64,000 nucleotides of DNA, from positions 64,001-128,000 of the forward strand of contig CAWJKT010000004.1 in assembly GCA_963843375.1 (NCBI GenBank), written 5' to 3'. This document shows positions 27,502 through 55,465 of this stretch, piece by piece. Every line of letters starts with the position of its first letter. Within the stretch, counting starts at the first letter, position 1. The stretch comes from an uncultured Pseudomonadota bacterium. GTDB lineage: Bacteria; Oederibacteriota; Muellerivitia; Muellerivitales; Muellerivitaceae. Position numbers and translations under genes: made by a program. The notes under the pieces were generated by a model. The model did not search any database, was not told where the DNA came from, and saw nothing but the letters and a program-made list of their open reading frames with translations.

Positions 27502-28032
27502 ATGCGCTGCTGCGGTTTGCAAATTTGCCTATTGCTGTTGTGCTTCGGCGGTGCGCACGCCGGAGAAGTGCCGCTCGGACAACAGCTGCCAAGCATGACG
27601 CTGCACGGCCTGAACGGGCCGGCCCAGACCCTCGGGACCTTTCGTGGCCGGCCGTTGCTCATCAATGTCTGGGCCAGCTGGTGCGGGCCATGCCGGCAGG
27701 AAATGGCCTCCCTGGAGCGACTCGCCTGGCGCGACTCGGACCCGCACCTGGCCATCATCGGGATATCCACTGACGATGATCCGCAGGCGGCTGTGGCGCT
27801 CCTTCGCAGCACCGGCGCGACGATCAGTCAATTCATTGATGCGCGCCGGCAAATGGAAACCCTGCTGGGCGCCTCCAGCATACCCTTGACGGTGCTGGTG
27901 GATGCCCAGGGTCGGGTGCGGGCGCGCTACTACGGCTCGCGTGAATGGGACAGCCCGGCGGCGCTGCAGCTACTTCGCACTGCCTTGGGCGCGCACGAAT
28001 TGGGCGAGACTCGCGCGCCCGTCCGCCCATAG
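27502..28032 (+). CDS. TlpA/ResA-like periplasmic thioredoxin
   Basis: Signal peptide, LINVWASWCGPCRQEM, IPLTVLVD, GSREWDS. Confidence 0.92.
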   Translation: MRCCGLQICLLLLCFGGAHAGEVPLGQQLPSMTLHGLNGPAQTLGTFRGRPLLINVWASWCGPCRQEMASLERLAWRDSDPHLAIIGISTDDDPQAAVALLRSTGATISQFIDARRQMETLLGASSIPLTVLVDAQGRVRARYYGSREWDSPAALQLLRTALGAHELGETRAPVRP

Positions 28033-28548
28033 ACCAAAAGGCGTCGCGAGCGCGTCCTGCGGCAGTCGCAGCAGGATGTGGTGGCTCAGGGCGATGAAGC
28101 GCAGCGTCGCCAGGTCGATGGGATAGGCGTAAGTCACCACATCGGCATGCGGCGGATAGTGCAGCGCGCCCCGATCCGCCACGACAACCGGCAGCTGCTC
28201 GAGAGCCTGCAGCACGATCGCGCGGTCGTCGGCTTCGATCTGCAGCGTTCCACTGCTCGCCGGCGGTGGCGTCGACATGCGCTTATCGACGGTTGACCAG
28301 CGGTACAGCAGCAGATAGTCATGGTAATGGCCGGCCTCGTCCAACTCCAGCGCCACCATGGTCGCGTAGTCGCGGGCATAGGCGGCCACGTCGGTGCGCT
28401 CACGCGCAAACACCAGTGGGTGTGTGACCAGCAGCAGCGTGTTACCGCTTTGCGGATCCAGGATGGCGCGCGAGTCGGGGGACGGCGCATGAACGCAGCC
28501 TGAGCCCAGCAGCAGTGCGGTAAGCAGCAAGGTCCAGCGGCTGTTCAT
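27970..28548 (-). CDS. Hypothetical lipoprotein, last gene of the cytochrome operon
   Basis: MNSRWTLLLTALLLGSGC lipobox; starts 8 bp after the barrel gene stop. Confidence 0.75.
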   Translation of the reverse strand: MNSRWTLLLTALLLGSGCVHAPSPDSRAILDPQSGNTLLLVTHPLVFARERTDVAAYARDYATMVALELDEAGHYHDYLLLYRWSTVDKRMSTPPPASSGTLQIEADDRAIVLQALEQLPVVVADRGALHYPPHADVVTYAYPIDLATLRFIALSHHILLRLPQDALATPFGLWADGRASLAQFVRAQGSAK

Positions 28549-28555
28549 GGGTCTC

Positions 28556-31021
28556 TTAGAAGCGCAGCCGGTAGGATGCGGACAGGTACAGGGAGCGCTG
28601 CTGCAGCGTGCTGGGCTCGATGGCGCCGTTCAGGCTCTGCGGCTGCAGGGATTGCTGTTGCTGCTGCATCTGGTAGCCCGCCGTCAGCTCGAAAATGGAA
28701 CGCCGGCCGGTCCAGTCGGCGCGCAGCTGCGGCAGGTACAGAAGTTGCCGCCCGCCGAGCATGGGATCGGTCAGTTCCTCGACGCTCAGTCGGGGCCCCA
28801 AGCGCCAGGCACCATACACCACAAAGCGGGCGTCCCAGGAGAGCGTGGCGCTGCGCGCCTGAGGTGAATCATCCACCCGCACGCCGAAGATGTGCAGGTC
28901 GCTGGCCTGCAGCAGGCTGGCGCCGGATAACTGGAGCGAGATGTTCTTGTCCAGCCCCATGGAGCCGATGGCCTCGACACCGCCGGAGGCCGGCGTGCCG
29001 CCCAGCTGCAGGGCCGACAGGCTGGCCATGAATTGCCAGCGCGCCCCCAGCGAGCGGCTCGCCGACAGCACGAAGGTTTCGCTGGTGGCGGCCCGATCCA
29101 GCGCGAGCTGCTTGAGCTGCGAGGGGGTGTACTCGCTCGCCAATGCATTCAGATCCGCTGCGGCCTGGCCAATCAGGGCGTCGTTGAGTTCCAACAGCGG
29201 GCTGCGACGATAGTCCGCATCAAATCCCAGTACCCAGGATTGCCCGACGCGGGCATTGCCGATGAGAGTGGCCGAGTTGAGCTCCTGGAAGTCGACATCG
29301 TAGTCCACGAGCACCACTGCGGTACGGCCGGACTGGGTGTAGCGGGTTTGCAGGCCGACCGAGCGCCGATCGGTGAAGCCCTCGATGGTCTCGTTGAACA
29401 GGTAGCCGTCCAGGGACCACGCGGCACTGGGATCCCATTCCGCGCTCACGGTCGCGAAATTCTGCTGGGTGGAAAAATCGGAATACGAGGAATAGGCCGG
29501 CAGCCCGGCCGCGGCGCTGATCAGCAGATGCGGATTGAGCTGGTAGCCCAGGTACACCCCATCGAACAGACCGATGTTACCCTGCACCGCCAATGACTGG
29601 CGACCGATGCGGCCGGTCCAGCCCAGGATACGATCGGTCAGTTCGACGTAGGCGGCGGTGGTGCGATCCTGGCTGCCACCAAAGGTGGTCACGAGGTTCT
29701 GGGTGTAGCCCGCGTCCACCCGTGCCGTAAAGTCATAGCGATCGCCGCGATCACGCAGCAGCAGGTCGGTATACACCAGCGCCGCGTTGGCCGAGGTGGT
29801 GGTGGTGGTGACGCCTGCCGCCACGCTCTGATCCGTCCCGTACTGATAGGTGATCGAGGCGCTCCCGGCCATGCTCCAGTGGCTCGGGGTCGCGCGTGCG
29901 AATTCACCCGTGGAATTGGGTGCCAGGGAGGCGGCCAGCAGACTTTGCAGGCGCGCGCGCACCCGCACCGCCCCCGGCCGGTCCGGATAGCGGCGCAGGT
30001 ACTCCTCGCACTCCGCTTTGGCCTGCGCCAGCTGCCCGGCGCGCTCGCGCACCAGCCCGAGCAGTTCCTGGGCATCGGCGCGGGCCGGATATTCGGGCTG
30101 GCGCAGCAATCGGGTGAGCAGCTCCACGGCTTCCGGAAAGCGTTGCCCCGCCAATGCCGTGCGCGCATCGCGCAGCAGCTGCGCGCGCGTCTCATCGGGC
30201 AACGGCGCATCGGTCGTGACGGGCGCGGCCGCGGCCGGCACGCCGGCGCGCTCCACCACCGTCAGATCAGTCTGCTCATCGTTGATGGCCAGCCAGGCGC
30301 GCGGATAGACGGACAGTGCCGCCTGCAGCACGCGTTGCGCCTCCTGCTCGCCCGCAAAAGGCCCGACCCGCAACCGATACCAGTGCTGGTCTTCGAGGTT
30401 GATCTCGGACACGTAGGCCTGGGTTTGCAGGGCCTTGGCGGCGGCTTCCACCGCGGCTGGCGCGAAGGGCTGCTGCGAGGAGTCGAGGTTGACCGCGTAG
30501 CCCGCCGCCGCATCCGGCTGCGTCAGTAACACCCCGGGCTGGTGGTGCCGGGTGCCGATGAGGCGCACGCGCAGGCCCAGCCCGGAGGCCATGGGCGCCA
30601 TGACGAAGTCCAGCTCCCCGGTCCAGTTCAGCGTCAGGGTGACCTCGCCGGGAACCACGCCATCCACGCGCGCCCCGGTCACCAGCTCCCCGCCACCGCC
30701 GACCAGCGGCAGCTCGGGCACAAAGGCATTGAGCAGGTTGCCGCAATCCGGTCCGAGCCGCAGCGTGATGCTCGTGCTGCTGCCGTGATCGGCGGGGGAA
30801 CTGGAGATGTAGTGCACGCTGCAGGCGAACTGCACCGTCACGTCCGCATAGTCATCATGCTCGGTGGTGTCCACGAACTGCACCAGCGTGCCCGGCGTAC
30901 GCACCGGCGGTGCCGCCGCCGCGCTGGGCGCGGCGCTGAGCAGCCCGGCAAGACCCAGCGCACACCCCCACCACCACAGCGCCCGCCCCGGCCCTGCACG
31001 GCGCCTACTCGGGGCACTCAC
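28556..31021 (-). CDS. Outer-membrane beta-barrel (putative porin) with N-terminal periplasmic SPOR and TPR domains
   Basis: GTG 31021 overlaps the cytochrome stop (GTGA); signal peptide; SPOR-like WYRLRVGPF...AW; TPR-like AQELLGLVRERAGQLAQAKAECEEYLRRYP; amphipathic strands ending LYLSASYRLRF (terminal Phe). Confidence 0.82.
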   Translation of the reverse strand: MSAPSRRRAGPGRALWWWGCALGLAGLLSAAPSAAAAPPVRTPGTLVQFVDTTEHDDYADVTVQFACSVHYISSSPADHGSSTSITLRLGPDCGNLLNAFVPELPLVGGGGELVTGARVDGVVPGEVTLTLNWTGELDFVMAPMASGLGLRVRLIGTRHHQPGVLLTQPDAAAGYAVNLDSSQQPFAPAAVEAAAKALQTQAYVSEINLEDQHWYRLRVGPFAGEQEAQRVLQAALSVYPRAWLAINDEQTDLTVVERAGVPAAAAPVTTDAPLPDETRAQLLRDARTALAGQRFPEAVELLTRLLRQPEYPARADAQELLGLVRERAGQLAQAKAECEEYLRRYPDRPGAVRVRARLQSLLAASLAPNSTGEFARATPSHWSMAGSASITYQYGTDQSVAAGVTTTTTSANAALVYTDLLLRDRGDRYDFTARVDAGYTQNLVTTFGGSQDRTTAAYVELTDRILGWTGRIGRQSLAVQGNIGLFDGVYLGYQLNPHLLISAAAGLPAYSSYSDFSTQQNFATVSAEWDPSAAWSLDGYLFNETIEGFTDRRSVGLQTRYTQSGRTAVVLVDYDVDFQELNSATLIGNARVGQSWVLGFDADYRRSPLLELNDALIGQAAADLNALASEYTPSQLKQLALDRAATSETFVLSASRSLGARWQFMASLSALQLGGTPASGGVEAIGSMGLDKNISLQLSGASLLQASDLHIFGVRVDDSPQARSATLSWDARFVVYGAWRLGPRLSVEELTDPMLGGRQLLYLPQLRADWTGRRSIFELTAGYQMQQQQQSLQPQSLNGAIEPSTLQQRSLYLSASYRLRF

Positions 31022-34000
31022 TGTCGTGGACCACCGCTGGTGACCGGCCGGCGCAGCAGCGGCCGCAGCGGCTTGACCGCCGGTGCGATCGTCCAGGTCA
31101 AAGTGTTGTGGCAGGTACCGCAGTCGGCGCTGGTCAGCGGGTGCGGCACCTGCTTGCCGGTGGCGAGGCTGCCGTTGTGGCAGCTGGCGCAGGTTGCCGT
31201 CAGCTCCAGGTGGCTGAACCTCACGGGCAGCCAGCCAATCGTGCCGTGGCAGCTGTCGCATTCAGCGTGCGTCGCGACATGCTGGGCGGGCAGGCCTGCT
31301 GCGATCACGGCGTTGTGGCAGCTGCTGCAGCGGGCCGTGATGCTGCGGTGATCAAAGCGCGCCGGCAGCCAGGCGAGCGTCGTGTGGCAGTCCTGACACA
31401 GACCCGTGGTGCGGATATGGCCCGGGACCATGCCGGTGGCCAGCACGCCATTGTGGCAGCCGGCACAGTTGCTGGTCACACCCGCGTGGGACATCGGTTG
31501 CATGCGCCCCAGGGGCCTCATGCCGGCTTGGGTCGTTCTCGGCGCGGCCACGACCGCGCTCACCACACTGGGCGACTTGGCCTTCACGACCACATTGCGC
31601 ACCAGGTTGCCCCCGTCCCAGTTGTTGGTGTTGTGGCAGCTGCTGCAGTCTGAAGTGAGCTTGCTGCCGGAGTTGTGATCGCTCGGCCGCGTCGTCAGAC
31701 CGGTGACACCATAGAAGCTCAAGGCCGGGGTGACCTTGTTGTGACAGGCGTCGCAGGTCTTGCCGATGACCGCGAACATCAAGGTGTGCTTCGCCGAGGT
31801 CATGGTGGTGCCACTGAAGGAGGTGAATACCGTGCTCGTATGGCAGTCCTCACAGGGGGTGGTGCTGGTGGGGATGTGCACCGGGGACAGCACGGCGTCC
31901 TTGGGCGTGTAGTTGTTGTAGAACACCGGCGGCGTCGCATTCGGCGCCCCATGACAGCTAATGCAGCCGCTGGTGATGCCGGTATGCAGCACTGGATTGG
32001 CGGCCAGCGTGGTCGTGGAATAGTCCGCCGGTGCCGTCGTGTGGCAGACGGTGCAGGCCTGATTGCCGGGATTGGGCATGTGCCCCGCCGGCAGGGCCGT
32101 GGAATTCCAGTTGGCGGTCGTATGGCAGATGCTGCAGTCATTCGGTGCCACCATCTGGCCCGCGTTGTGGTCGGCGGGTCGGCCCTGCAGTGCAGGACTC
32201 GCTGCGCCCAGGTAGAAGCTCAGCCCGGCTTCATGGCAGGTATCGCAGGTGGTGGCCACGAAGGCATGCGTGGCTTGGGTCATGTTCATGGGCCCGAAAC
32301 TGCCCACCGCATAACTCGTGGTGGTATGGCAGGAGCCACAGCTGGTGCCGCCCAGATACGGGATGTGCGCAGGCGTCAGTACCGCATCCTTGGGGGTGAA
32401 GTTGTTGTACCAGGTCAGCGCCGTGGTGCCCCCGTGGCACTGCGCACACTCACTGCTGGTGATGCCGGTGTGCAGCACCGAGTTCGCGGCCAGCGTCGCC
32501 GTCGAATAATCCGCCGGAGCCGTGGTGTGGCAGAGGGTGCAGGCTTGATTGGCCGGATTGGGCATGTGGCCGGCCGGCAATGCGGTGCTGTTCCAGTTGG
32601 CGGTGGTGTGGCACAGGCTACAGTCGTTGGGCGCCACCATCTGCCCGGTGGTGTGATCGGCCGGCCGTCCCTGCAGGCCCGGGCTCGCCGCGCCCATGTA
32701 GAAAGTCAGACCCGCTTCGTGACAGCCATTGCAGGTGCTGCCAAGTCCCGCATGCGTCGCCTGCGTCATGTTCATCGGGTCCGAAGGTGCCGGCCGCAAA
32801 GGTGCTGGTCACATGGCAGTTGCTGCAGTCCGTGCCGGTGAATGCCGGAATGTGCGCCGGGGATCAGCACGGCCGATTTCGGATTGTCGTTGTTGTTGTA
32901 GAAGGTCAACGCGGTGGACCCGCCGTGACATTGCGCGCAACCGGTGCTGATACCGGTGTGCAGCACGGCATTGCTGGCCAAGGTGGCGTAGCTGGCGGTC
33001 GTACCGTTGATGGCGATATGGCACACCGCGCAGGCCTGGTTGCCGGGGTTGGGCATGTGGCCGGCCGGCAGCGCCGTGGTGTTCCAGTCCGTGGTCTCAT
33101 GGCACCCGGAGCAGTCGCCGGTGGCCTGCTGCGGCGTACCGCCCGAGAGGTGATCGGCCGGGCGACCCTGCAAGGCCGGGGTCGAGGCGCCCAGGTAGAA
33201 GCTCAGGCCCGCCTCATGGCAGGTGTCGCAGGTGGTGGCAACGAAGGCATGCTTGGCCGCACTCATGCCGGTCGGACCGAAGCCGCCGACGAGATAGTTG
33301 GCCGCATGGCAGGCACTGCAGTCCGTCCCGGACAGGAACGGGATGTGTGAGGGTGTGAGGACGTCCGATAAGGGGTTGTCGTTGTTGTTGTAGAAGGTCA
33401 GTGGCGCGCCGGCGCCGTGGCACTGGGCACACCCGGCGCTGATCCCGGTGTGCAGCACCGCGACGCTGGCCAGCGTGGCGTAGCTGGCCGCGGTGCTGCC
33501 GATGGCAATGTGGCAGACGGCGCAGGACTGATTGCCAGGATTGGGCATGTGTCCGGCCGGCAGCAGGTTGGTATTCCAGTCGGTGGTCTCATGGCACAGC
33601 GAGCAGTCGCCGGTCGCCTGCTGCGGCGTACCGCCCGAGAGGTGATCGGCCGGCCGGCCCTGCAAGGCCGGGGTCGAGGCGCCCATATAGAAGCTCAGGC
33701 CCGCCTCGTGACAGGTATCGCAGGTGCCGGACACGAAAACGTGCTTGGCCGCACTCATGGCGGTGGGACCGAAGCCCCCGGTGGTGTAATTGGCGCTATG
33801 ACAGGCGGCGCAGTCGGTGCCGGACAGATACGGAATGTGCGACGGCGTGAGCACGCCATCGACGGGCGTGTAATTGTTGAACCAGGTGAGTGGCGTGGTG
33901 CTGCCATGGCACAGGCCGCAGTTGCTGCTGATGCCGGTGTGCAGCGTGGCAATGGCCGCCAGCGTCGCCGGCGTGTAGTCGCTGGGCGCCGAGGCGTGGC

Positions 34001-35443
34001 ATTGTGCGCAACTGAGATTGCTCGGATTGGGCATGTGACCGAGCGGCAACGCGGTGCTGGTCCAGTCCGTGGTCTCGTGGCACACCGAACAGTCACTGCT
34101 GGCCATGCGCGTATCGGTACTGGCCAGGTGGTCCGCGGGCCGCAGCTGCAGCGGCGTGCCACTGCCCACGTAGAAGCTCTTCCCGGTGTCATGGCAGGTG
34201 TCACAGGTGCCGGAGACAAAGGCGTGCTTCGCGGCACTCATGGCGGTTGACGGGCCGAAGCCCCCGGCTTGATAGGCAGCGCCATGACAGGCACTGCAGT
34301 CCGTGCCGGCCAGCACCGGAATGTGCGGCGGCGCCAGCGGTGTGGCATGCGTCGGCGACACGCCCGAAACGGACATGGGGATATACGGGGCCGGTACCCC
34401 GGCGAAGGTCTGGCCGGCATGGCACATGAGGCAGTTGCTCACGGACAGGCCTGCATGCAGGGTCGGAATGCTGGCCACGAGCATCGTCCAGGTCTCAGCA
34501 CTGGGCACATTGCCGTGGCAGATGCCGCAGTCCACCAGCGAGGGAATCGGCGGCACGTGGTTGGTGGGCTGCCCCGACACAAAACCGCTGGAGATCTTCA
34601 CCGTGCCGCTGTGACAGGTCTGGCAGGTCTGCACCGTCATCTGGGTGTGATCGAAAGCCGAGGGCACCCAGCTGGGGGTCGCGGTGCCGATACCGGTCGT
34701 GTGGCAGTTCTCGCACAAGTTGCTGGTCGGCATGTGCGTACCCTGTTTGCCCACCGCCTTGGTGCCGTTGTGGCAGCTGTAGCAGCCGCTGGTAATGCCC
34801 GTATGGTCGAAGGTCGCGTTTGCCCAGGTGCTGGTCAGGTGGCAGTCGCCGCACTCCAGGCTGGTGGCGATGTGATTGGCGGGCTTGCCCGAAGCCTGCA
34901 CGCCGTTGTGGCAGATGATGCAGAACCCGGCCGCCGCCAGCGGAATCTGGCTGTGATCAACGATGGTGGGCGGATTCCAGCTGACGACACTGTGGCAGCT
35001 CGCACAGTTCTGGGTGGTGGCAGGATGGGTCGGGCCTTCGCCCTGGGCGGTGGTGCCGTTGTGGCAGCTGACGCAGCTGCCCAGCACCTCGACATGATCG
35101 AAGTGCACCTGCGGACGAAAGGAATTGGTGTCATGGCAGGCGACGCAGTTGTTGGAACTGGCGATGTGACTGCGGCTCTTCGGTGTGGCGTTGAACTGCG
35201 AGCCGCTCGTGTGGCAGGTGAGCGCAGTCCCGTGGCGTGCCCTTGAAAATGGCATTGAGGTGGCAGGATTCGCACGGCAGGTCGCGATGCACACCGTCGA
35301 GTTCGAAACCGGTCGTCAGATGATCGAAGGGCACCGTGATGGGTGGCGCGCCGCCCGCCGCCCGCAGCGGCGGTGCCGCCAGCAGCGCCACCACCAGCAG
35401 CACCGTCGCGATCCATCCGCTCCTGATGGTGCGATGTCATCAT
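31018..35443 (-). CDS. Giant multiheme c-type cytochrome, ~1470 aa, ~46 CxxCH (several frameshifts)
   Basis: Joined frames 35131-35403, 32772-35294, 32618-32812 (extended upstream: HIPAFTGTDCSNCH) and 31018-32799. Hand count 46 CxxCH, one of which spans a frameshift; Sec-type signal LLVVALLAAPPLRA. Confidence 0.9.
31620..34330 (-). repeat. Intragenic tandem repeat: five full and one partial ~160-aa five-heme modules
   Basis: Recurring HIP..CxxCH-..FGP..HxF..CDTCH-..RPADH..DCSxCH-..W..LPxGHMPNP.N..CxxCH-..LHTGI..CxxCH-..NN. Confidence 0.9.
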
Positions 35444-35449
35444 CTGGGC

Positions 35450-37030
35450 CTACTGGATCCGCGCGCCCTTCCAGGAATCGCGTCGAATGGCAGCGCTCGC
35501 AGTGCACACCGTACTGTCCGAGATGCCGGTCATCCTTCTGATGGCAGGCGTCGCACTGCTGCGACATCTTGACCGTGCCCGGCGGGTCGCGGTGGCAGTC
35601 CGCGCATTGCAGCTTGGCGTGCGCTCCGAGCAGCGGGAAATGTGCCTCCCTGGCGTGATCGAAGCTCCACAGCGCCCAGCCGTTCGCCGAATGGCAGCCT
35701 TCGCACTTGTTGCCCAGGCCGCCCTTGTGCACGTCATCGTGTGCGTGGCAGGCGACGCAGGCGGAGGCCGCGGCGCTGAAGGCCAGCGTGGCATGGCACT
35801 GCGCACAGCTGACGATGCGGTGCAGACCCAGCAACGGGAAGCTGGTCACATCGTGATCGAATACCACATCGGCTCGCCAGCCGTTCTGCCCGTGACAGTC
35901 ACCGCAGCCGCCCTTGAGCTTGGCGCCGTGCGGATCCTCGCTGCGATGGCAGTCGGCGCAGTCCTGGCCGAGCTTCTGGGTCGCGACGGCCGCGGTATGG
36001 CAGGCTGTCGCAGGCGAGGTGCGCGTGCGCGCCCAGCAACGCAAATTGGTGCCGCCCGGTGTGATCGTAGTTGTCCACCTGCCAGTGACTGTTGTCGTGG
36101 CAGGTCCTCGCACTGGCTGCCGAAGCGCAGCGCATGCGCATCGTCGGCGCGATGGCAGCCCGCGCAGTCCTTCGGGATCTTGTCCTTGTAGTTGCCGCTG
36201 CGGTGACAGGCCAGGCAGTCGATCTGCGCAGTGCGCACCCAGCAGCGCATAGCCGGTCTCCTTCAGGTGATCGAACTTCGCCGCTCTTCCACTGCTTGGT
36301 CACATGACAGCGTCCGCAATCCGAGCCGCGGCTGCCACGATGCACATCATCGGTGGCGTGGCAGCCGACGCAGCTCGCTCGGTGTCGGCTTGTAGCGTCC
36401 GCCGATATGGCAGGCATCGCACGTCAGGGCCGTGTGGGCGCCGGTCAGTGCGAAGCGGGTCTTGCCGTGATCAAATGTGCCGCCGCTCCAGTCATTGCTC
36501 GAATGGCACTCGCTGCAGGACTGGGTGAACTGTCCACGATGCGACATCGTCCGCCTTGTGGCAGCCGGCGCAGGTGTCGGCCACGGCGCGCCAGGCCGCC
36601 TGCGGCTTGTGGCAGCTCTCGCAGGGCAGCGCGGCATGCGCACCTTGCAGGCGAAAAGTCAGTCAGCTGGTGATCGAAGTGCGCACGATCCAGCTGCACG
36701 ATGTCGGCGGTGCGCCCCTTGTGCTCGGTGTGGCAGGCGCGGCATTCGCCGGCGCCGGCATTCGCCATGCGGCCATGGTAGCCGCGGTGCGTACGCAACA
36801 TCGGCGGCAATCTGCTTGTGGCAGTCCAGGCACAGGGAGGTCTGAGTGCGCGCGTTGGTGCGGTCATGGCAAGCTGGCGCAGGTGGTCTCCAGCTTTGCG
36901 TGAGCGCTTGCGCACCTTCCCCGGCATCAGCAAGGTCTCCACCGATGCCGCACCCGCAGCGCCCGCACCCAGGCACAACAGCAGTAATCCACCCGGCTCC
37001 CAGCATCTTGAGAATCGAGCCGCGCCGCAT
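35450..37030 (-). CDS. Periplasmic multiheme c-type cytochrome, ~21 CxxCH in 3-heme repeats (many frameshifts)
   Basis: Signal ...AGAASVETLLMPG; repeated FDH..F.L.GAH..CxxCH..CxxCH..D.H.G..CxxCH across frames 36445, 36347, 35899, 35846 and 35316; ends WKGARIQ* at 35450. Confidence 0.88.
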
Positions 37031-37039
37031 GTTTGGCCG

Positions 37040-37923
37040 TCAGTAGATGTTGACCGCGACCACATGCACGATTCCTGCAACCAGGAGCATGAAGAACAGC
37101 GGGATGTGAAGGACGTGCCAGAAGGAGAACAGGCGCGCATAGAGACGGTACTCGGCGGTGCGGCGCCCCGCCTCCAGGCGCCGGTCGGCATAGCGGCGCG
37201 CCAGGGCCGCCAGGCGGTCCGCATGGCGCACGACGATGCGCCCCTCCTGGGCTTTGCGCCACCCGCAACGCCCGGGCGATCTCCCGGTACACCAGCCAGC
37301 GGGCAATGAGGATCCGCAAGGCGCCGGTGAACAGGTGCGGCACGCGCGCCAGCGGCGCCCGCGGTGGCTCGATGTACCGCTTGCTCGACGCGCGCGATGA
37401 CATCCAGCACCCCGGGCAGGAAGGCGATGGAGGTGCTTTGCGCGCGCAGCCGTTCGCCCACCGATCTGAGCTGCTCCAGGGTGCTCTCATGGCCGTCCAT
37501 GTGGGCGTGCAGGCGGGTATAGATGTAGCGGCCCACCACGCCGCTGCCGGCGACCAGTAACATGCAAATCAGGGCGACATTGCTGTTGGTGGCGCCGAAA
37601 CTGAAGTTGGCGTGAAACAGCACCAGCAGCGGACCGGTCACGCCGAGCACCATGTGGATCTGGAACCAGCGCCGGAATGGTTCCGATCCAGCGCAGCCAG
37701 GCAGCCCGCTTGCGGGCCGAATAGATCAGCAGCGCCAGCATCATGCAGCCACCGGCGATGCCAAGCGCATAGCCCACACCGTGCTGCGGGGAGATGTAGC
37801 GCTCCAGGTGGGCATGCCACCCCAAGTAGACCAGCCCGGCGACCACCGCACACCAGATCAACGGCCAGTGCAGCCGCAGGCGCGACGGCTGAGGCCCGCC
37901 AGGCTGGCGGCTTCGACGCTCAC
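37040..37923 (-). CDS. Conserved inner-membrane protein with TM histidines (cytochrome b-like), frameshifted
   Basis: GYALGIAGGCMM..LIYSARKR, (H)MVLGVTGPLLVLFHANF, SGVVGRYIY, RLFSFWHVLHIPLFFML..GIVHVVAV; GTG overlaps the upstream stop. Confidence 0.78.
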
Positions 37924-38780
37924 GGGATCACCTTGTCGATCACGATCTTCACACGGCGGCGATCGTGCGGATTGATGACGGCACTCGTGCCCTGCAGGTC
38001 CCCTGCGGTGGCCAGCGGCTGGCCGCTCGGCGAGATGCGCGCCTCGATCGTGACCCGTCCGGCGTTCGAGAGCGTGCGTCCCGGCAGCATCGACTCGCTG
38101 TCGTCCAGAGCAAAGCTCAAAGGCCAGGTGCCGACACTGCCGCGGTACACGGCGACCGGTGCCCCCGGGCTGTCCACTGACTTCGCCACGATGAATATCG
38201 TCGTGCCGGCGGGGGCACGCGACGCCAGGGCCGGAGCCAGCGCCACCTCGCCCGTGACACCGGTTGCCGCAGGCGCACTCGAGTCACCCGGCGCGCCGGC
38301 CGGCGGCGCCTTCAGCGCGGGCAGCTGATGCGCCCGCGCCTGCGCGGCCTGCTGCGGCCGGCCCAGAAAATCATAGGACTTGGCGAGCAGCTCCCAGTCA
38401 TCGTCGCTGCCGCCGCTTTTGGCCAGCCGGGCTTGCAGCGCCGCAATCGCCGCGTCCATGGAACCAGCACGCCCCGCATCCTTGGCGCTGCCCGCGGCGG
38501 CAGGCGCCGCAACACCGCGGCCCATGGCATCAGCCAAGTCGGCCCAGGAGTCACCCGTCGCTGCGCTGCTGACCGCGGCCGCAGCGGACGGCGGCGGCGC
38601 GGGTGTGCCGCCGTAGTTGAGACCCAAGTCTATGGCCATGACGATGAGCGCCGCCGCCCCGGCGGGCCACGGCAGCGCCGGAAGGGTCGCCAGTCGCGGA
38701 ATCGTCCGTAGCCAGGGCAGCAGCAAAATGACGGCCGCCAGCGTGAATACCCCGCCGGATATGAAGGACAGTACCGACAC
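37920..38780 (-). CDS. CcmI/CycH-like cytochrome c maturation chaperone (TM, TPR, C-terminal Ig-like domain)
   Basis: Two N-terminal TMs, WELLAKSYDFLGR TPR, IFIVAK..GAPVAV..WPLSFALDDSESMLPGRTLS..VTIEARISPSG..GDLQG. Confidence 0.85.
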   Translation of the reverse strand: MSVLSFISGGVFTLAAVILLLPWLRTIPRLATLPALPWPAGAAALIVMAIDLGLNYGGTPAPPPSAAAAVSSAATGDSWADLADAMGRGVAAPAAAGSAKDAGRAGSMDAAIAALQARLAKSGGSDDDWELLAKSYDFLGRPQQAAQARAHQLPALKAPPAGAPGDSSAPAATGVTGEVALAPALASRAPAGTTIFIVAKSVDSPGAPVAVYRGSVGTWPLSFALDDSESMLPGRTLSNAGRVTIEARISPSGQPLATAGDLQGTSAVINPHDRRRVKIVIDKVIP

Positions 38781-38948
38781 TCGATGCGCTCCTCAGCAGA
38801 CCGTGCGCCACGGTCCCGATTCCAGGATCCGGATGCAAACAACGCGCTCGTGCGCTTTGCTAAGTAAAGTTGATTCTAATGATCGCCCAACAATTTGACA
38901 CATGTATGTGAATCACGACACTGATCCTGGATGCAGCGGCCGGCGGTA

Positions 38949-38964
38949 TGTGATTTGATTCGCA
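38949..38964. promoter_or_regulatory. CRP/FNR-superfamily-like box in the divergent promoter
   Basis: TGTGA-TTTGAT-TCGCA, one mismatch to TGTGA-N6-TCACA, in an AT-rich intergenic gap. Confidence 0.45.
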
Positions 38965-39015
38965 GTATCCTGGCGACCCGGTTTTTACTCTAATAGGCCC
39001 GCCCTCACGGTCCGA

Positions 39016-40335
39016 ATGAGCCCGCACATGGACTTCTGGTCATTGGTCCTTTACGGACTACCCCTGGCGGCCATCCTGGCTGTCTACATTTGGCGACAGC
39101 AGCGCACGCATCACCAGAATCGGCGTGTGCACGAAGAAACGGTAGCGGCCGGCTTGACCGAGCCTGCCTCCTTGCATCCAAGCATTGATCCGAGCAAATG
39201 TCTGGGCTGCGGCGCCTGCGTGAAGGCGTGCCCCGAGCAGCCGCATCACACGGTGCTCGGGCTGATCGATGGCAAGGCGGTGTTGGTAGGCCCGACCGAT
39301 TGCATCGGTCACGGCGCCTGCAAGACCGTGTGCCCCTTCGATGCCATCACCCTGGTGCTGGGCACCGAGCGGCGCGGCGTGGATATTCCCGTTCTCAAGC
39401 CCAACTTTGAATCCAATGTGCCGGGGATTTATGTCGCCGGTGAACTCGGCGGCATGGGTCTGATCAAGAACGCGCTGACGCAGGGCCGTCAGGCGCTGGA
39501 GTCGATCGCCAAGGAGCTGAAGCCCCAGCCCGGGGTGCTGGACGTACTCATCGTGGGCGCCGGCCCCGCGGGCCTGGCTGCGTCCCTGGCTGCCAAGCAA
39601 CTGGGACTGAATTATCGGACCGTTGAGCAGGAAGCCCTGGGCGGCGCGGTCTTCCAGTATCCGCGCGGCAAGCTGGTGATGACCGCGCCGGTGGAGCTGC
39701 CGATCATCGGCAAGATTCAGTTCCGCAATACGACCAAGGAGGAACTGCTGAAGTTCTGGACCCAGGCCTGCCAGGGCAATGGCCTGAACATCCGCTACAA
39801 GGAGCGCGTGGAGACCGTCCAGCAGCGCGATGGGTGTTCCAGGTGAAGACCACGCGGCGAGCGTACCAGGCTTCACGCGTCCTGCTGGCCATCGGCCGGC
39901 GCGGCACACCGCGCAAGCTGGGCGTACCCGGCGAGGAGCTGCCCAAAGTGGTGTACCGGCTTGATTGACCCGGAGCAGTACCAGGGACGACGTGTCGTGG
40001 TGGTCGGTGGCGGTGACAGTGCGCTGGAGGCCGCGGCCAGCATCGCCGAGCTGGGCACCTGTGCGGTGATCCTGTCGTATCGTGGCGAAGCCTTCCAGCG
40101 CGCCAAGCAGCGCAATCGCCAGCGCGTGCAGGAGGCCAGCGCCCTGGGCCGACCTCAAGGTACTGATGGGTTCGGCCATCCAGGAGATCCAGCCGCAGGC
40201 CGTGGTACTCAAACAGGCCGAAAAGTCATGGCCGTCGCCAACGATGCCGTGATCGTGAGCGCCGGGGGAGTATTGCCGAACGACTTCCTGCGCGCCATCG
40301 GCATCGAAGTGGAAACCAAGTACGGCACGGCATGA
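39016..40335 (+). CDS. Membrane-anchored 2x[4Fe-4S] ferredoxin fused to a thioredoxin-reductase-like FAD/NAD(P) oxidoreductase (frameshifts ~39840, ~40150)
   Basis: N-terminal TM; CLGCGACVKACP and CIGHGACKTVCP; ESNVPGIYVAGELGG; IVGAGPAG; AIGRRGTPRKL; VVGGGDSALE. Confidence 0.88.
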
Positions 40336-42331
40336 TGAACCCGCGCCTGCACCGGACCGTCCGTGATGCCCGCCTCGGCCTGCTGCTGGGCCTCATCATG
40401 GGGCTGGGAAACCCGGGCGCCCGCGCAGCGACACCGCGCGCGCGTGGATCCGCTGGAGCCGGCGCGCAGCGCCCTGCGCACCCTGCAGTTCAGCCGCGCC
40501 ATGCAGCTGCTGAGGCCGCCGGCACGGCGGGCAATCCCGAGGCGCAATACCTGCTCGGTCTCATGTATCTGAATGGCGTGGGCATCGCGGCCGATCCCGC
40601 GCGATCACGCGCGCTGCTGCAGTCCGCCGCCGAACACGGTCAGGGCGCGGCCGCCTACGTGCTGGCCAGTGAACTGGCGCGCGATCCCGCGCGCACCGCC
40701 CGAGGCGGCGCGGCGCTGGCTGGAACACTCGGCGCAGCTGGGCTACGGGCGTGCCGTAGAGGTGTTGAAGGCAGGCGGCGTACTGCTCGCCCGTGAAGAC
40801 CTGGGTGTCTCGGATCCGGCGCTGCGCCCGGCGTGGGTGATCGCCTGCATCCGCCGCAATGACACGGCGGAGCTCAAGCGCCTGGGCACCGACAGCCTCT
40901 CGGCGCGGGATGCGTTCGGACGCGGATCGCTCGATTACGCCGTCCAAGCCGACGCAGTGGCCGCGGCGACCATGCTGCTGCAGCTGGGTGCGGACGTTCA
41001 CGCAGCGGACAGCTTCGGCACGACGGCGCTGATGCTCGCCGCCGAACGCTCCGACACGCCCTGCTGGACCTGCTGCTGCAGCATGGTGCGGACCTGCAGG
41101 CCGTGGATGCCGAACATCGCACCGCGCTGTTCTATGCCGCGCGCGCCAATCAGCCCCAGGCGATCACGGCGCTGCATGCGGCCGGCGCGGCGCTGGACGC
41201 CCGCGACGAACGTGGCTACAACGCACTGGATGCCGCACTGGCGGTCGGGCGCCACGGGCGCCGCCCAGGCCCTGCGCGATGACGGCCTGCAGGCGCATGT
41301 GGCCGCGACGGCGCCCGCGCGCAGCGGCAAATTTGATCCTACCCGTCCGGGTGACATCTATCCGAATTGGCCCGTGCTGGCCCTCGCCGTTGCCCGCAAC
41401 GACACCAGCGCCATCCGGCAGCTGCTGGATACCGGCGCCCTGCCAACCTGCGACTGCCGGCAGGGCGAGTCGCTGCTGCAGATCGCCGTGGATGCACGCG
41501 CCTTGAACGCCCTGCCGTTGCTGGGCACACGGGGCTCCATCACGGCTACCGATCACGCCGGGCACACCGCGCTGTGGCTGGCGGCCGCCCGTGGCGATCT
41601 CGCCGTGATTCGGGCCCTGCTCGCCTCAGGCGTGGCCGCCGACACGCACGGTGCCGAGGAAACCACCCCGTTGCTCGCGGCGTTGCACAGCTCCCACGCC
41701 GAGGCGGCGCAGGCCTTGCTGGAGGCCGGTGCCAATCAGGAGGCCATCGATTCGCAAGGCCGCCGGCCGCTGATGATCGCCTGCGCAACCCGGCAGCTGG
41801 CGCTGGTGCAGTGGCTGCTGGCCCATCACGTCCAGGTGGATGCGCAGGATGCCCAGCGTCGCACCGCGCTGTGGCATTCCGTCATCTTCGGCTCCGCGGC
41901 CGAGGTGAATGCACTGCTGACGGCCGGTGCGCGGGAGGACGTCGGCGGACGCACAGGGCCTGACGGTGCTGCACGCTGCCGCCGCTCAAAGTGACGCCGC
42001 GGTCGTACAAGCGCTGCTGGCCCCCAACACCAGCCTGAATCAGCGCAGCGTCAGCGGCGATACGCCGCTGCTGATCGCCGCGGCCAGGGGCCACGCCGAA
42101 CTGGTGCAAGAACTGCTGAAAATGCGTCCGGACCTGGATGTCCAGAACCGCGCCGGTGATACCGCGCTGATCGCCGCTGCGCGCGGGGGCTATGCAGCCG
42201 TGTGCCAGCTGTTGCTCGCGGCGGGAACCAATACTGCCCTGCGAAACGCTGCTGGCGTCACCGCCGCCGAGGTGGCTCAGGGCCGAGGCTTCACGTCGCT
42301 GGCCCGCGATCTCACCAGCAAGACTCTCTAA
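40332..42331 (+). CDS. Exported Sel1-repeat plus ankyrin-repeat protein (frameshifted)
   Basis: Signal-like N-terminus, GNPEAQYLLGLMYLNG (Sel1), many G.T.L..A ankyrin motifs (GTTALMLAA, GHTALWLAA, GDTPLLIAA, GDTALIAAA); start overlaps the upstream stop. Confidence 0.85.
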
Positions 42332-42346: not shown

Positions 42347-43579
42347 TCAATAGGCCAAGAACGGTCCGGTATAAAGGCCGGCCGTGCGCTGTTCGAAGCC
42401 AACGTAGACAGGCCGGCCGTAGAAGAAGGGCATGCCCCAGGTGAAGTTGGTCGAACCACCTCCGCCGGCGAGGTCGATGAAGGCGGCGGCACCGGCGACA
42501 AAGGTATTCGGGTCGGCGATGGCAAAGTTCACGGTGCTGGAGGCATTGTTGACGCCAACTCCGGTGTTCACGGCAAAGACGCTCTGCGGCGCCACGGCCG
42601 GACAGTAGTAGCCCACGAACGGGCCAGTGCCGCACACGCCCAGCGTGGGATCATCAAACAGATAGGAGTCGGCCCCGGAATCAATCAGTGACGGAAGGGC
42701 CGTCGCGCCGCCATTATAGGTGGCGGTGAAGTCGCCATTGGCATTGGTGCCCAACACGGCCAGCCCGGTGGCGGGCAGCGCATTGTCGCTCTGGGTTCCC
42801 AGGCCGAAGATCACCTCGCCCGCCACGCTGGCATCGCCGTTGGCATTCTGCAGATTGGGCAGGTTCACGATCAACCCATTGTTATCCGCCGCGAACAGCG
42901 TCGCCGGATTGGTCACCTGGGTGCCAAGCGCAGCATTTTCTGCCGTGCAGACGCCGGCGGCGCTGCAGCCGTAGTAGACCGGAAGCGGTGACGCAGCGCC
43001 CGCACAGGCATTGCCGCAATCCTGTGCAAAGACACCGATGCCCAGTACACCGTTGGCACCGAAGCCGGAAATGCCATTGATCAGCGTCCCGTTGGCGCCG
43101 CACGTTGCTGGCGGCGGTGCGCTGCTGCCCGTATCATCCATGATCTGGATGGGAACCTTCGATGCGGCCTCCCCGGCCAAGGTGACGTCAGTGAGGGCCA
43201 CGGGCCCCCACGTCTGTCCGCCACCGAACGTGACGCACTCCTCCAGCGTCTGCCCCTGGGCATCGGTTTCGGGGCTGAGTTTGACACTCGCCGAGAGCAC
43301 CGAACCGACCAGTCGCAGGCCGGACGATCCGGTATCCAGCAGCACATGGTCGATATTCAGGCACTGAGTCTGGCTGCCCGGTACGCACACCGTCACAGTC
43401 ACGTAGGCATGGTTGATTTGACCGCTGGCGCCCGCTGGCCCGGAATCCACGATGACCGTCAGGCGGTTTTGCACCGGCGGCGGCGATTTCGCGCCGGCGC
43501 CCGTGCTGCTGTTGCCCACACAGGCGCCCAGCAATGTCGGAAGCATGACGCTTGCAATGAAGGCTACAGCACATCGCAT
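42347..43579 (-). CDS. DUF3443-family lipoprotein (pepsin-like DTG/DSG motifs)
   Basis: Lipobox LGAC, VTVCVPG, VLLDTGSSGLR, ANGVLGIG, LIDSG, WGMPFFYGR. Confidence 0.85.
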   Translation of the reverse strand: MRCAVAFIASVMLPTLLGACVGNSSTGAGAKSPPPVQNRLTVIVDSGPAGASGQINHAYVTVTVCVPGSQTQCLNIDHVLLDTGSSGLRLVGSVLSASVKLSPETDAQGQTLEECVTFGGGQTWGPVALTDVTLAGEAASKVPIQIMDDTGSSAPPPATCGANGTLINGISGFGANGVLGIGVFAQDCGNACAGAASPLPVYYGCSAAGVCTAENAALGTQVTNPATLFAADNNGLIVNLPNLQNANGDASVAGEVIFGLGTQSDNALPATGLAVLGTNANGDFTATYNGGATALPSLIDSGADSYLFDDPTLGVCGTGPFVGYYCPAVAPQSVFAVNTGVGVNNASSTVNFAIADPNTFVAGAAAFIDLAGGGGSTNFTWGMPFFYGRPVYVGFEQRTAGLYTGPFLAY

Positions 43580-43602
43580 GCGTTCCTCCTGCCTCCGCGC
43601 CG

Positions 43603-44073
43603 TCAGCGCAGGGTATCCAGTGCTACGCCGGCCGGGACGGCCGCGGGCAGATACGCCCGCCCAGAGTAGGCGCGCAGGTGCCCACCGGTATCCACCACCA
43701 GGTCTGCCGTCACAACATGAATGGCGCGCTGACGGCCCGCATTCTGCAGTAACCAAAGGGCACTGGCGTACTGCCCGAAGTACGCACCCAGCACGGCCGC
43801 CAGATCCGGTACTGCAGGTCCACTCCAGCTCACCGCAAACACGGTGCCGCCAGAATCCAGGAACTCGCGCACGGTCATGCCGTTGTCAGTCCGGATGCTC
43901 ACCGTATCGCCCGGCGCTGGCTGCACCGGTTGCACCTGGCCGTGCAGTTGCGTTGCATCCGCGAGAATACTGGCCGAATCCCCACCCAAGGTAGCCTGCG
44001 CACTGATCGACCAGGCGCACAGCGCGCTCGATATGACAATCCGCGGGACAACGCGAGCAACTGAACGATGCAT
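43603..44073 (-). CDS. DUF2844-family exported protein
   Basis: AQATLGG, VREF, VFAVSWSGP..PDL..VLGAYF, GGHLRAYSGRAYLP; usual partner of DUF3443. Confidence 0.85.
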   Translation of the reverse strand: MHRSVARVVPRIVISSALCAWSISAQATLGGDSASILADATQLHGQVQPVQPAPGDTVSIRTDNGMTVREFLDSGGTVFAVSWSGPAVPDLAAVLGAYFGQYASALWLLQNAGRQRAIHVVTADLVVDTGGHLRAYSGRAYLPAAVPAGVALDTLR

Positions 44074-44286
44074 TCGAGTATTGTGCAGCATCAGCAGCGG
44101 CGCTGGCACCGTCTCAGAATGCCGACAGGTCCACGCGTCCGACCGCGCTGCGGCTGAACTGTGGCGAGACAAAAATCCCTTTGACAGTGAAGTGCGCCGA
44201 TTCGCAAATCGTATTGTCTCAAAAATCATAGCGCAGCTGCCGGGTGGCGCCTCCGGGCACAGGAACGACAACAATGGAAGCCCGAG

Positions 44287-44510
44287 TCCACGCGCGCCCA
44301 GGTCGATGCCTTGCGGTCCCAGCCATCAATCTGGAAGATGGCCGCGGCCGCAGGCGGCCCCCAGAAACGCGGACTTTGCACCGCCTTGAGCGCTGAGGCA
44401 CCCACTCGCGACCAGCCCGGCGCAACTGTCACATCCTCGCCCCAAGGGCGGCCCTCCTGAACGGTCGCGCAGTCGCTTAACGCCAGGCCAAGCAACCCCA
44501 ACCACACCCT
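44287..44510 (-). pseudogene. N-terminal fragment of a lipoprotein, possibly PAP2-type
   Basis: LALSDCAT..GRPWGEDVTVAPGWSRV..AAAIFQIDGWDRKASTWAR, then the protein-like signal breaks off. Confidence 0.4.
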
Positions 44511-44802
44511 TCCAGGCACTGCCCGAAAGGCCAAAGTCCGCCGTCGTCTCGCTGCGTGCACTGTACTTTGCCACACGAACTCGGTACTTTGCAGCGTAAA
44601 GTGATTGCCGGCTCGGTGCAACTTCCGACGCGGCGCGGCGCTCAGCCGCATCAGCGCACCGGGGCGGTTGATTCTCACAGTCGAGTACGTCCAAGCATAG
44701 TTGCACCCCGAAAAGCGAACGCCACCCGGTAATCCCGTGATTTCCTTGCGCACACTCGAACGAAGTGTCAAACGTTGGCTGAACCTCCGGCTCTCGGCTT
44801 GC

Positions 44803-45435
44803 ATGACGCCGCGGCAGCAGCGGATGATGCCCCTCGCGCTGCTCGTGGCGCTCATCACGACTCCAGATATCGCCCGCGCTGGCGGCGGTCCGCTGGGAAT
44901 CGATTCGCGTCTGACGTACGACAACCGCGGCATCTGGGCCCGGGGCAATCAGGAGGCCTTGATCGACAGCATGATCGGTGTCGTGGCAGCGGGCGCGTTG
45001 TGGGAAGGCGGCGAAGACCGTTTGGGCAAGACCTTCTGGCAATCCGTGGACGCGGGGGCAATCAGCGGACTGGCCTCCACCGCGCTCAAATACGCGTTTT
45101 CGCGCGAGCGCCCGTCCCAGACCTCCAACCCAAATGAGTGGTTCACGGGGCACGGTCAGAGCTTTCCGAGCGGGGAGGTCACCACGACGAGCTCACTGGT
45201 CACGCCTTTCGTTCTTGAATACGGCAGGGACCACCCGGCCGTGTATGCGCTGGAGCTGCTACCGATCTATGATGCCATTGCCCGCATGAAGACTTGGGGG
45301 CATTGGCAAAGCGATGTGCTCGCCGGCTACGCATTAGGGACCGCGAGCGGCTACTTCCTGCACCGCAGCGGTTCCCCGCTCGTTTTCAGTGTCATGCCAC
45401 ACGGGGTTCAAGTCGGGTTCAAAATGCAATTCTGA
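44803..45435 (+). CDS. PAP2-family phosphatase-like protein
   Basis: KYAFSRERP, SFPSGE (His replaced by Glu), ARMKTWGHWQSDVLAG. Confidence 0.82.
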   Translation: MTPRQQRMMPLALLVALITTPDIARAGGGPLGIDSRLTYDNRGIWARGNQEALIDSMIGVVAAGALWEGGEDRLGKTFWQSVDAGAISGLASTALKYAFSRERPSQTSNPNEWFTGHGQSFPSGEVTTTSSLVTPFVLEYGRDHPAVYALELLPIYDAIARMKTWGHWQSDVLAGYALGTASGYFLHRSGSPLVFSVMPHGVQVGFKMQF

Positions 45436-45613
45436 CGCCTTACATTGGCTACAAGACAGGTCCGCCAGGCTCGGTTGCAGGCTGCCCACGTTCAATCATG
45501 GTTAGACTTCGGGCCGCCCGGCATTCTCGCATCGACAATGCTTTCGACGCTCGAGGGCCTCTCATGGGAGCATCAAGTGTTACACGCCCAACTGAACGCA
45601 ACATAGGTAAGCG

Positions 45614-46198: not shown

Positions 46199-46311
46199 TC
46201 CTTAGTGCCAGACAGCGACCCTCGCAACGCGCAATATTGCCATGAGAACGATTAGCGGCGATGCGGCCCCGAGATCATGGAGCCGCGCGCGCCCGCCGCC
46301 TGGCACCAAGC

Positions 46312-47187: not shown

Positions 47188-47190
47188 GAC

Positions 47191-52098: not shown

Positions 52099-52131
52099 TG
52101 CTCAGGTGCGCACTCGGAAAACCCCTCCGAT

Positions 52132-54870: not shown

Positions 54871-54953
54871 TAACGACCCCCCACAGCCAGGAATCATTCC
54901 AGTATGAGTCACGAGGGTTAGATAAAAATGCTTGAAAGGGTTATATTTCTTCC

Positions 54954-55361: not shown

Positions 55362-55465
55362 CGGGCCCCAAAAGAGGCCTGTAGAATGGGCTTATAGGCC
55401 CTTGTATTGAAACTGGTTCAAGGGTAATTTAACTATCTGCTTCAAAGTGTTTTTAAGGATCATTT

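Follow-up and report, generated by a model that had tools for sequence, protein, structure and literature searches.

A PCC3-type multiheme gene cluster of a Steroidobacteraceae-like gammaproteobacterium and its possible supply with electrons from NAD(P)H

How the porin-cytochrome complex PCC3 works has been an open question since 2017, although this widespread system includes some of the most heme-rich proteins known. The question is raised again by a locus in a 64,000-nt stretch of DNA (positions 64,001 to 128,000 of GenBank contig CAWJKT010000004.1), hereafter the window, in which all coordinates are given. Six closely packed genes on its minus strand (27970-38780) encode, in this order, a CycH-like protein, a membrane protein, a 21-heme cytochrome (cytochrome 1), a 46-heme cytochrome (cytochrome 2), a barrel protein with SPOR and tetratricopeptide repeat (TPR) domains and a lipoprotein; the genes of a flavoprotein and of a Sel1/ankyrin protein diverge on the plus strand. 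With a probability of about 0.6, we read this locus as an intact PCC3 cluster of a Steroidobacteraceae-like gammaproteobacterium that forms an outward conduit fed by NAD(P)H, the frame breaks in its sequence being assembly errors. The initial annotation had correctly described the gene content, the order and the GTGA overlaps or short gaps, as Pfam matches, frameshift-aware mapping and reading of the junctions all agree. Its presentation of the locus as a new system was overstated, since this kind of complex has been in print since 2017; what is added here is support for an NAD(P)H-type entry module within an eight-gene unit.

According to the available part of He et al. (2017; PMC5566968), a PCC3 cluster comprises a porin, two cytochromes (one extracellular, one periplasmic) and a membrane protein of ~300 amino acids (aa). 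The periplasmic cytochrome has a median of 21 hemes with 22-39 aa per heme, the extracellular one, built of repeats, rich in small residues (Thr, Ser, Ala and Gly) and likewise with 22-39 aa per heme, has a median of 34 and up to 85 hemes, and the membrane protein has five helices, the fourth carrying SGXXG and the third and fifth WX3HX13H. The locus shows every sequence feature of this definition; the initial annotation had proposed the match to PCC3 from the gene order. CxxCH motifs occur 71 times in the minus-strand frames, nearly all at 31.1-36.8 kb, where they are distributed across all three frames, and, over the entire window, 14 times in the three plus frames; this density is far above chance. 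Once the breaks are read through, cytochrome 1 has 18 intact and 3 cut motifs (402 of 522 residues identical to its counterpart in locus L002) and cytochrome 2 has 45 intact and 1 cut motif (1313 of 1473 residues identical to that of locus L001), which gives the 21 and 46 hemes that had been estimated beforehand. These correspond to 24.9 and 32.1 aa per heme, respectively. Cytochrome 2 contains 12.0% T, 9.1% S, 12.6% A and 8.9% G (42.6% together), its gene includes a 492-bp tandem repeat (32846-33855), and its extracellular site is predicted only. Pieces of the cytochromes match the Pfam cytochrome c7/c3 families. The membrane protein has five helices, two WX3HX13H motifs (on helices 3 and 5) and an SGVVG motif on helix 4, and the barrel gene, whose product gives a confident barrel model, adjoins the cytochrome genes through a GTGA overlap.

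Both relatives used for comparison carry large cytochromes with 46 CxxCH motifs. L001, from a Steroidobacteraceae metagenome-assembled genome (MAG), encodes a barrel 87% identical to that of the window and a large cytochrome of 1478 aa. L002, from genome G002, is intact: it encodes a divergent flavoprotein of 435 aa, a CycH-like protein of 294 aa, a membrane protein of 293 aa, a cytochrome of 523 aa with 21 CxxCH, the 46-motif cytochrome, a barrel of 829 aa (74% identical to that of the window) and a lipoprotein of 192 aa. A supposed third locus (L003, a Planctomycetaceae record) was dropped, the match being a chance one of 19 residues.

The same four core genes stand in the same order as Slit_1446-1449 of Sideroxydans ES-1 (available part of the table in PMC11429942), whose other PCC3 copy is Slit_0867-0870; this match is one of order and features, and homologous loci of like order in 20 genomes across the class support it indirectly. 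In Gallionellaceae, the periplasmic PCC3 cytochromes have 21, 24 or 27 hemes, and the 46 hemes of the large cytochrome exceed the 10-35 of that family while remaining within the range of He et al. The locus also differs from published ones by its host, a Steroidobacteraceae-like soil bacterium, and by a barrel modelled with ~22 strands, as compared with up to 42 transmembrane segments predicted for PCC3 in 2017. The claim of the initial annotation that the cluster does not resemble MtrAB, MtoAB or PioAB stands at the level of protein families: the barrel has no MtrB_PioB Pfam match at E <= 0.01, and the NCBIfam models for DmsE/MtrA (TIGR03508) and OmcA/MtrC score 94.9 and 59.3 bits against cut-offs of 192.2 and 209.3. 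Cytochrome 2 does nevertheless match Cytochrome_C7 and the MtrC/MtrF domain II/IV modules above the Pfam cut-off (PF22113, 116.3 bits in L002). MtrCAB, MtoAB and PioAB follow the same logic, with a multiheme wire in the periplasm, a barrel in the outer membrane and a cytochrome at the surface; the cluster differs from them by its 21 and 46 hemes instead of 10 and by an inner-membrane partner that is a bis-His five-helix protein rather than CymA.

Several of these genes are interrupted in the sequence as given, as the initial annotation had suspected. Frameshift-aware protein-to-DNA alignment against L001 and L002 maps 24 breaks: 12 single-base insertions in cytochrome 1, four in cytochrome 2 (at about 35425, 35223, 32864 and 32779), three in the membrane-protein gene (37672, 37383 and 37244) plus a doubtful call at 37877, and four indels in the flavoprotein gene (39836, 39960, 40153 and 40221). 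The CycH-like, barrel and lipoprotein genes have none; the ankyrin gene has at least two more, bringing the total to at least 26. These breaks could be taken as the mark of a decaying array of pseudogenes, an explanation that the initial annotation had itself raised, but +1 insertions account for 21 of the 24 breaks mapped, no stop codon falls in frame, three genes of the cluster are unbroken and the read-through genes are 77-89% identical to the proteins of the intact relatives. When the DNA is aligned with L001 (84.6% identity over 8.67 kb), the window has one base too many at seven places, all of them outside long homopolymers.

Parts of the stretch occur in nine public sequencing runs, of which the best four, belonging to a single study, were compared (runs X5-X9 contain less than one tenth of its words). 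Contigs from three soil runs have one base fewer at 32776, 32859, 35223, 35426, 35480, 36003, 36106, 36229 and 39958 and one base more at 39833, a comparison that covers 10 of the 24 mapped sites among the matches listed. All four extra bases of cytochrome 2 are thus absent from the short-read contigs, and the flavoprotein sites at 39833 and 39958 are corrected. One such contig, 1141 bp long, has a single mismatch to the window and otherwise departs from it only in two of these extra bases, and another, of 1781 bp, is ~97% identical; the sample of origin may be among these runs, and the comparison would then be all the more apt. Elsewhere in the window, in the part of the contig derived from another organism, the coding sequence of an unrelated sulfate permease is broken into two frames that overlap (56895-57602 and 57394-58488, Pfam profile positions 1-210 and 225-380), likely by a frameshift error as well. 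As these near-identical contigs lack the breaks at the sites covered, most breaks are +1 without stops and another gene of the window is also split, the breaks are almost certainly errors of the assembly consensus, and a truly decayed locus is very improbable. Between 35223 and 37672, nearly every error is one inserted base that does not lie in a long homopolymer; of the 16 insertions in the cytochrome genes, four lie inside a CxxCH-coding site and several adjoin TGCCA(C/T), a pattern that may reflect a systematic consensus error.

The genome to which the contig is assigned is an 80%-complete MAG with a G+C content (GC) of ~0.50, in which a 16S search gave no match. The contig itself (C4) has a GC of ~0.61 at 1-118 kb, ~0.50 at 120-460 kb and ~0.69 at 460-564 kb. 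The membrane protein was not found in any of 30 genomes taxonomically related to the MAG, of which 22 are at least 90% complete. Positions 42400-54000 match G002 at 72-83% and neither of two relatives of the MAG, and positions 54500-64000 match, at up to 85%, a relative of the same genus as the MAG; the organism therefore seems to switch near ~54000-54900 of the window (~118 kb of C4), and GC changes again at ~460 kb. Because GC and nearest relatives both change near 54 kb, the contig is probably chimeric and joins at least two organisms, the alternative being a very large foreign island. Judged by its sequence matches, the PCC3 DNA is that of a Steroidobacteraceae-like gammaproteobacterium and not of the MAG's own lineage.

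The proposed entry of electrons concerns two proteins. The flavoprotein begins with a transmembrane helix followed by basic residues, and carries the motifs CxxCxxCxxxCP and CxxHxxCxxxCP, the His of the latter being invariant; both motifs are present in the read-through of the window. Its FAD/NAD(P)H-binding domain (GGGDSA) is related in a profile search of the PDB to YpdA/Bdr (7a7b, E 3e-40) and to thioredoxin reductase (TrxR)-like ferredoxin-NADP+ reductases. This likeness to 7a7b, 3ab1 and 3lzw (E 3e-40 and below) is confined to the flavin/NAD(P)H domain, which has no conserved redox-active Cys pair. Unlike YpdA/Bdr, this domain is fused to an N-terminal membrane anchor and to a ferredoxin domain with two clusters, in which the second motif carries His in place of Cys.

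In the membrane protein of L002, which has five hydrophobic segments, the motifs lie at residues 86, 127 and 268, and the same motifs are found in the read-through of the window. Across 35 sequences of this protein, residues H90, H104, H272, H286, W268, S127, G128 and G131 do not vary. The four invariant His are placed as in di-heme-b proteins of the ferric-reductase type and are presumed to be the ligands of two b hemes. Homologues are numerous (2972 at E <= 0.001 among 7291 candidates), and the nearest ESM Atlas clusters are automatically named 'ferric reductase like' at 0.97. An AlphaFold2 model (pLDDT 83.2) had no Foldseek match at E <= 0.001, and a profile search of PDB sequences returned nothing meaningful (best E 0.089). 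Helices 4 and 5 are separated by a basic loop of ~130 aa; under the positive-inside rule, both this loop and the basic residues of the flavoprotein would face the cytoplasm.

The arrangement recalls NOX-like two-component systems. In these, a di-heme protein with a ferric-reductase domain (NOX, MsrQ) works with a cytoplasmic flavin reductase, separate or fused, has two pairs of His 13 residues apart on two helices and passes electrons outward across the membrane. The membrane protein of PCC3 differs from them by its five helices instead of six, and the flavoenzyme is TrxR-like with two Fe-S clusters rather than FNR-like.

Several comparisons connect these two proteins with each other and with the cytochromes. 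Family and class are those of G002, and gene presence was scored by blastp at 1e-5. Of 151 sampled genomes of the family, 70 match the membrane protein, 59 of them strongly; at the level of the class, 67 of 400 genomes match, one of them (G189, an unpublished genome) weakly. Among the 151 genomes, 56 have both proteins, three the membrane protein only, one the flavoprotein only and 91 neither, counts in which kinship among genomes inflates any co-occurrence statistic but which amount to a clear, nearly perfect pairing. All 20 family loci have the order divergent flavoprotein, membrane protein, 21-heme cytochrome, large cytochrome, barrel, and the core genes recur in 20 class-level loci, so that the synteny on which the initial annotation had made its proposal depend is observed. 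The periplasmic cytochrome is present in all loci of both sets, with exactly 21 motifs in 19 family loci (it is split in the other) and with 21 motifs in 15 and 24 in five class-level loci. The large cytochrome is likewise always present, with 29-70 motifs in the family, where it is in one frame, and 15-133 in the class; the barrel gene is found in all family loci (once cut by a contig end) and in 16 of the 20 class-level loci, while in the other four the contig ends first or the region is not covered. The lipoprotein gene follows the barrel gene in 18 family loci and in none of the class, and the CycH-like gene occurs in 16 and one, respectively. The flavoprotein gene adjoins the cluster in 20/20 and 15/20 loci. 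Four of the five remaining class-level genomes have a full-length orthologue elsewhere: one just outside the fetched flank, one 11 kb beyond the barrel gene and two on other contigs.

A complex of the membrane protein and the flavoprotein, predicted with two hemes and two clusters included, scored 0.36, the best of three controls scoring 0.00; runs agree in at least 87% of contacts, with partner pLDDT of at least 71. Of 157 solved complexes, 116 reach the mark set for such predictions, as do 2 of 215 pairs that are mismatched; at scores of 0.60 or less, it is reached by only 18 of those 157 solved complexes and by both mismatches. The prediction thus gives weak support to the pairing. In the literature, the main text of He et al. 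mentions no ferredoxin, FAD, pyridine nucleotide, SPOR, tetratricopeptide or lipoprotein in the sense of PCC3, that of Hoover et al. (2023; PMC9900912) does not link ferredoxin, pyridine nucleotide or flavoprotein to it, and other full-text searches returned nothing on a PCC3 flavoprotein. The flavoprotein, CcmI-like, Sel1/ankyrin and lipoprotein genes and the SPOR/TPR part of the porin thus distinguish the locus from PCC3 as described in these main texts.

At the outer end, the barrel protein consists of a signal peptide, a beta domain (residues 47-155), SPOR (175-246), TPR (276-365) and a barrel (382-820), and ends in F. Its AlphaFold2 model has a mean pLDDT of 85.9 and a pTM of 0.69, residues 382-820 being mostly above 90, with five TPR helices, a helix-bearing loop (612-642) and 23 DSSP strand segments that are read as a barrel of ~22 strands. 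The best fold matches are 22-strand TonB-dependent transporters, namely FyuA (Z 15.2, root-mean-square deviation (rmsd) 5.2, 392 residues aligned) and Cir (Z 14.9). The fold and width of this barrel had been left by the initial annotation as a point that could undo its proposal; the fold is modelled with confidence. TonB-dependent barrels of 22 strands enclose a plug domain. Because barrels of like strand number hold such a domain, the lumen of the modelled one, which has no plug of its own, would be wide enough for a heme-bearing chain. Homologues of the barrel number at least 365; identity ranges from 63 to 100% among the 120 listed, three of which, from Steroidobacteraceae MAGs, are named SPOR domain-containing protein. 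Clustering at 50% identity gives 1577 clusters for the barrel, of which 771 reach E <= 1e-30. A role as a polysaccharide-export or generic porin was considered and rejected: Foldseek returned only generic barrels with TM-scores of at most 0.29 (query-normalised), and the conserved coupling to cytochrome genes argues against an unrelated function.

The N-terminal ~200 aa of the large cytochrome are always conserved (34-81% identity), the remainder varies, and the heme number ranges from 15 to 133 across relatives; the conserved module is inferred to be the docking end. At the upper end of this range, in L025 (6722-18937, G452:C17), one uninterrupted frame of 4071 aa occupies the place of the large cytochrome and has 133 CxxCH motifs, well above the maximum of 85 hemes per protein of He et al. 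In L035 (6457-13480, G194:C1), two consecutive large cytochrome genes (23 and 69 CxxCH) lie between the 21-heme and barrel genes.

Put together, the path of electrons can be pictured as follows. NAD(P)H would reduce the FAD and then the Fe-S clusters of the cytoplasm-facing flavoprotein, from which electrons would cross the inner membrane over the two b hemes of the membrane protein. They would then be taken up by the 21-heme cytochrome, spanning the periplasm, and pass to the 46-heme cytochrome and the cell exterior. The N-terminal module of the large cytochrome would dock at or in the barrel and its repeat wire would extend outside, while the SPOR domain might anchor the barrel to peptidoglycan, with a cytochrome perhaps held by the TPR domain. 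Such a conduit could, in the manner of a two-part NADPH oxidase and without passing through quinones, serve to reduce Fe(III), Mn(IV), humics or comparable acceptors outside the cell, or to discard surplus reductant. Outward flow is the most likely direction because the donor enzyme is of NAD(P)H type, because electron flow from Fe(II) to NAD(P)+ is uphill and because the PCC3 of ES-1 is lowered on Fe(II). Extending the scheme to PCC3 as a whole, as a quinone-independent split machine akin to NADPH oxidase in which a flavoprotein with a His-ligated cluster feeds a di-heme-b protein and a 67-heme wire to the exterior, is more tentative than the reading of this one locus, and somewhat under an even chance in our estimate.

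The strongest competing explanation is the one that He et al. proposed from the PCC3 of iron oxidisers, as set out in the available part of their paper: a conduit for electron uptake in Fe(II) or mineral oxidation, whose membrane protein would be a quinone-reducing cytochrome b. The flavoprotein would then be a bystander or serve, for example, in redox repair. Complete PCC3 clusters in 26 Gallionellaceae genomes (Hoover et al.) are in keeping with it, and the five-helix bis-His design would suit a quinone-reactive b cytochrome as well. The two expression studies point in opposite directions. In the accessible part of a 2025 preprint, which calls PCC3 functionally unverified in agreement with the initial annotation, the membrane-protein gene of PCC3 copy 2 of Sideroxydans CL21 is up in iron-oxidising cells (10.1101/2025.02.27.639646), whereas both PCC3 clusters of ES-1 are down-regulated on Fe(II) in the accessible part of PMC8788666. 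Uptake is also difficult to reconcile with the uphill step to NAD(P)+, with the frequency of the cluster in the family of G002 and with the near-obligate pairing of membrane protein and flavoprotein, which is hard to ascribe to chance. To our knowledge, the Steroidobacteraceae-like family is not known for iron oxidation. Uptake is accordingly considered unlikely, while being the least improbable of the alternatives. That both cytochromes remain periplasmic and store or buffer electrons there, with the SPOR/TPR barrel as an envelope tether or assembly factor instead of the sheath of a heme wire, appears improbable, if less so than decay of the locus. The large cytochrome does have a plain Sec signal peptide and no lipobox, there are no secretion genes within the cluster, the TPR segment of the barrel protein resembles BamD-type TPR and a capacitor role of many hemes has been mentioned by Hoover et al. 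However, the barrel gene overlaps the cytochrome gene by GTGA and adjoins it in every locus not cut short, a barrel of 22 strands without a plug would leave an empty lumen, and a fixed N-terminal module followed by 15-133 hemes would fit a docked end and a free outer end.

The NAD(P)H-fed outward conduit has its own difficulties. The membrane protein has no Pfam ferric-reductase match and only weak ones to DUF3611 and DUF4405, and its fold matches, to the two-heme design 7ah0 (Z 9.5), SpNOX 8qq7 (Z 7.7, rmsd 2.9, 118 residues aligned) and cytochrome b561 (Z 7.3), are within the noise of helical bundles. None of three longer homologues of the membrane protein is fused to Fer4 or Pyr_redox, which is weak evidence. 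One of the 20 class-level genomes has only a partial and distant flavoprotein match, and in three the gene is not adjacent. The complex score lies in a band where a pass would more often be wrong unless the guess were already likely. Sequence cannot give the direction of flow, the conduit function is a prediction for every PCC3 so far, and a folded 46-heme protein without lipobox would have to reach the cell surface.

The remaining genes are consistent with a single unit (Table 1). The junctions, read from the sequence, are a GTGA overlap between the CycH-like and membrane-protein genes, gaps of 9 nt before cytochrome 1 and 6 nt between the cytochrome genes, a GTGA overlap between cytochrome 2 and the barrel, and a gap of 7 nt before the lipoprotein gene. 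A promoter scan of the divergent region found one sigma-70-like match (minus strand, 38901-38873), not above chance (shuffles average 1.8). The CycH-like protein has two N-terminal transmembrane helices and a C-terminal Ig_CycH domain (PF23892, 100.7 bits against a cut-off of 27, E 4.7e-29); TPR_CcmH_CycH was not detected in this short form and is present in 4 of 5 longer relatives scanned. It could plausibly be a dedicated chaperone for very long apocytochromes. The lipoprotein has a signal peptide ending in Cys (a clean LAGC lipobox in L002), no Pfam or NCBIfam match and only unnamed ESM Atlas clusters. Pfam places Sel1 at 40332-40793 and ankyrin repeats at 40573-41994 and 41927-42328 of the last gene, which has a signal-peptide-like N-terminus, in keeping with a periplasmic product, and whose start overlaps the end of the flavoprotein gene; the ends of these genes likewise touch in L006, and Sel1/ankyrin relatives adjoin the cluster in many loci. 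In L010, L011 and L015, ankyrin and CycH-like genes sit between the membrane-protein and 21-heme genes; the eight genes therefore stay together despite a change of order.

Table 1. Features of the PCC3-type locus (window coordinates)
Feature	Position	Strand	Description
Lipoprotein gene	27970..28548	-	open reading frame (ORF), 192 aa
SPOR/TPR/barrel gene (P0001)	28556..31021	-	821 aa; Pfam SPOR and TPR (ORF 28556-31261)
Large multiheme cytochrome (cytochrome 2) gene	31018..35443	-	~1474 aa, 46 CxxCH
Periplasmic multiheme cytochrome (cytochrome 1) gene	35450..37030	-	~523 aa, 21 CxxCH, Sec signal peptide
PCC3-type inner-membrane protein gene	37040..37923	-	~293 aa, five transmembrane helices
CcmI/CycH-like chaperone gene	37920..38780	-	286 aa; Pfam Ig_CycH
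Divergent intergenic region	38781..39015	.	presumed promoters of both transcription units
Membrane-anchored Fe-S flavoprotein gene	39016/39028..40335	+	~435 aa; Pfam 4Fe-4S and pyridine-nucleotide oxidoreductase
Sel1 and ankyrin-repeat gene	40332..42331	+	Pfam Sel1, ankyrin; split over at least 3 frames

Around the cluster, a DUF3443 and DUF2844 gene pair directly adjoins it (42350-44274), the DUF3443 part being also found near the PCC3 locus in G002 and G048. Genes for cytochrome b561, an ApbE flavin transferase and DUF3570 form a redox-looking membrane set (45614-48492) syntenic with contig C7 of G002. The same high-GC block carries a Mutator-family transposase (1000-2256), a SoxA/TsdA-like c-type cytochrome (11078-12883) and cytochrome bd oxidase subunits I and II (21229-23902).

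The locus presents PCC3 as an eight-gene unit that automatic annotation of this record would miss and assign to a wrong host, owing to the broken frames and the chimeric contig. Its flavoprotein partner offers a concrete and testable alternative to the published model, which involves quinones and Fe(II) oxidation. Should NAD(P)H indeed be the entry point of electrons, PCC3 would represent a new way to respire extracellularly or to balance redox state in soils, and taking it as a marker of iron oxidation would have to be reconsidered. With strong matches in 59 of the 151 sampled genomes, PCC3 is common in a major soil family, and abundant soil heterotrophs such as Steroidobacteraceae would, if this is true, gain a direct outlet from NAD(P)H to minerals or humics.

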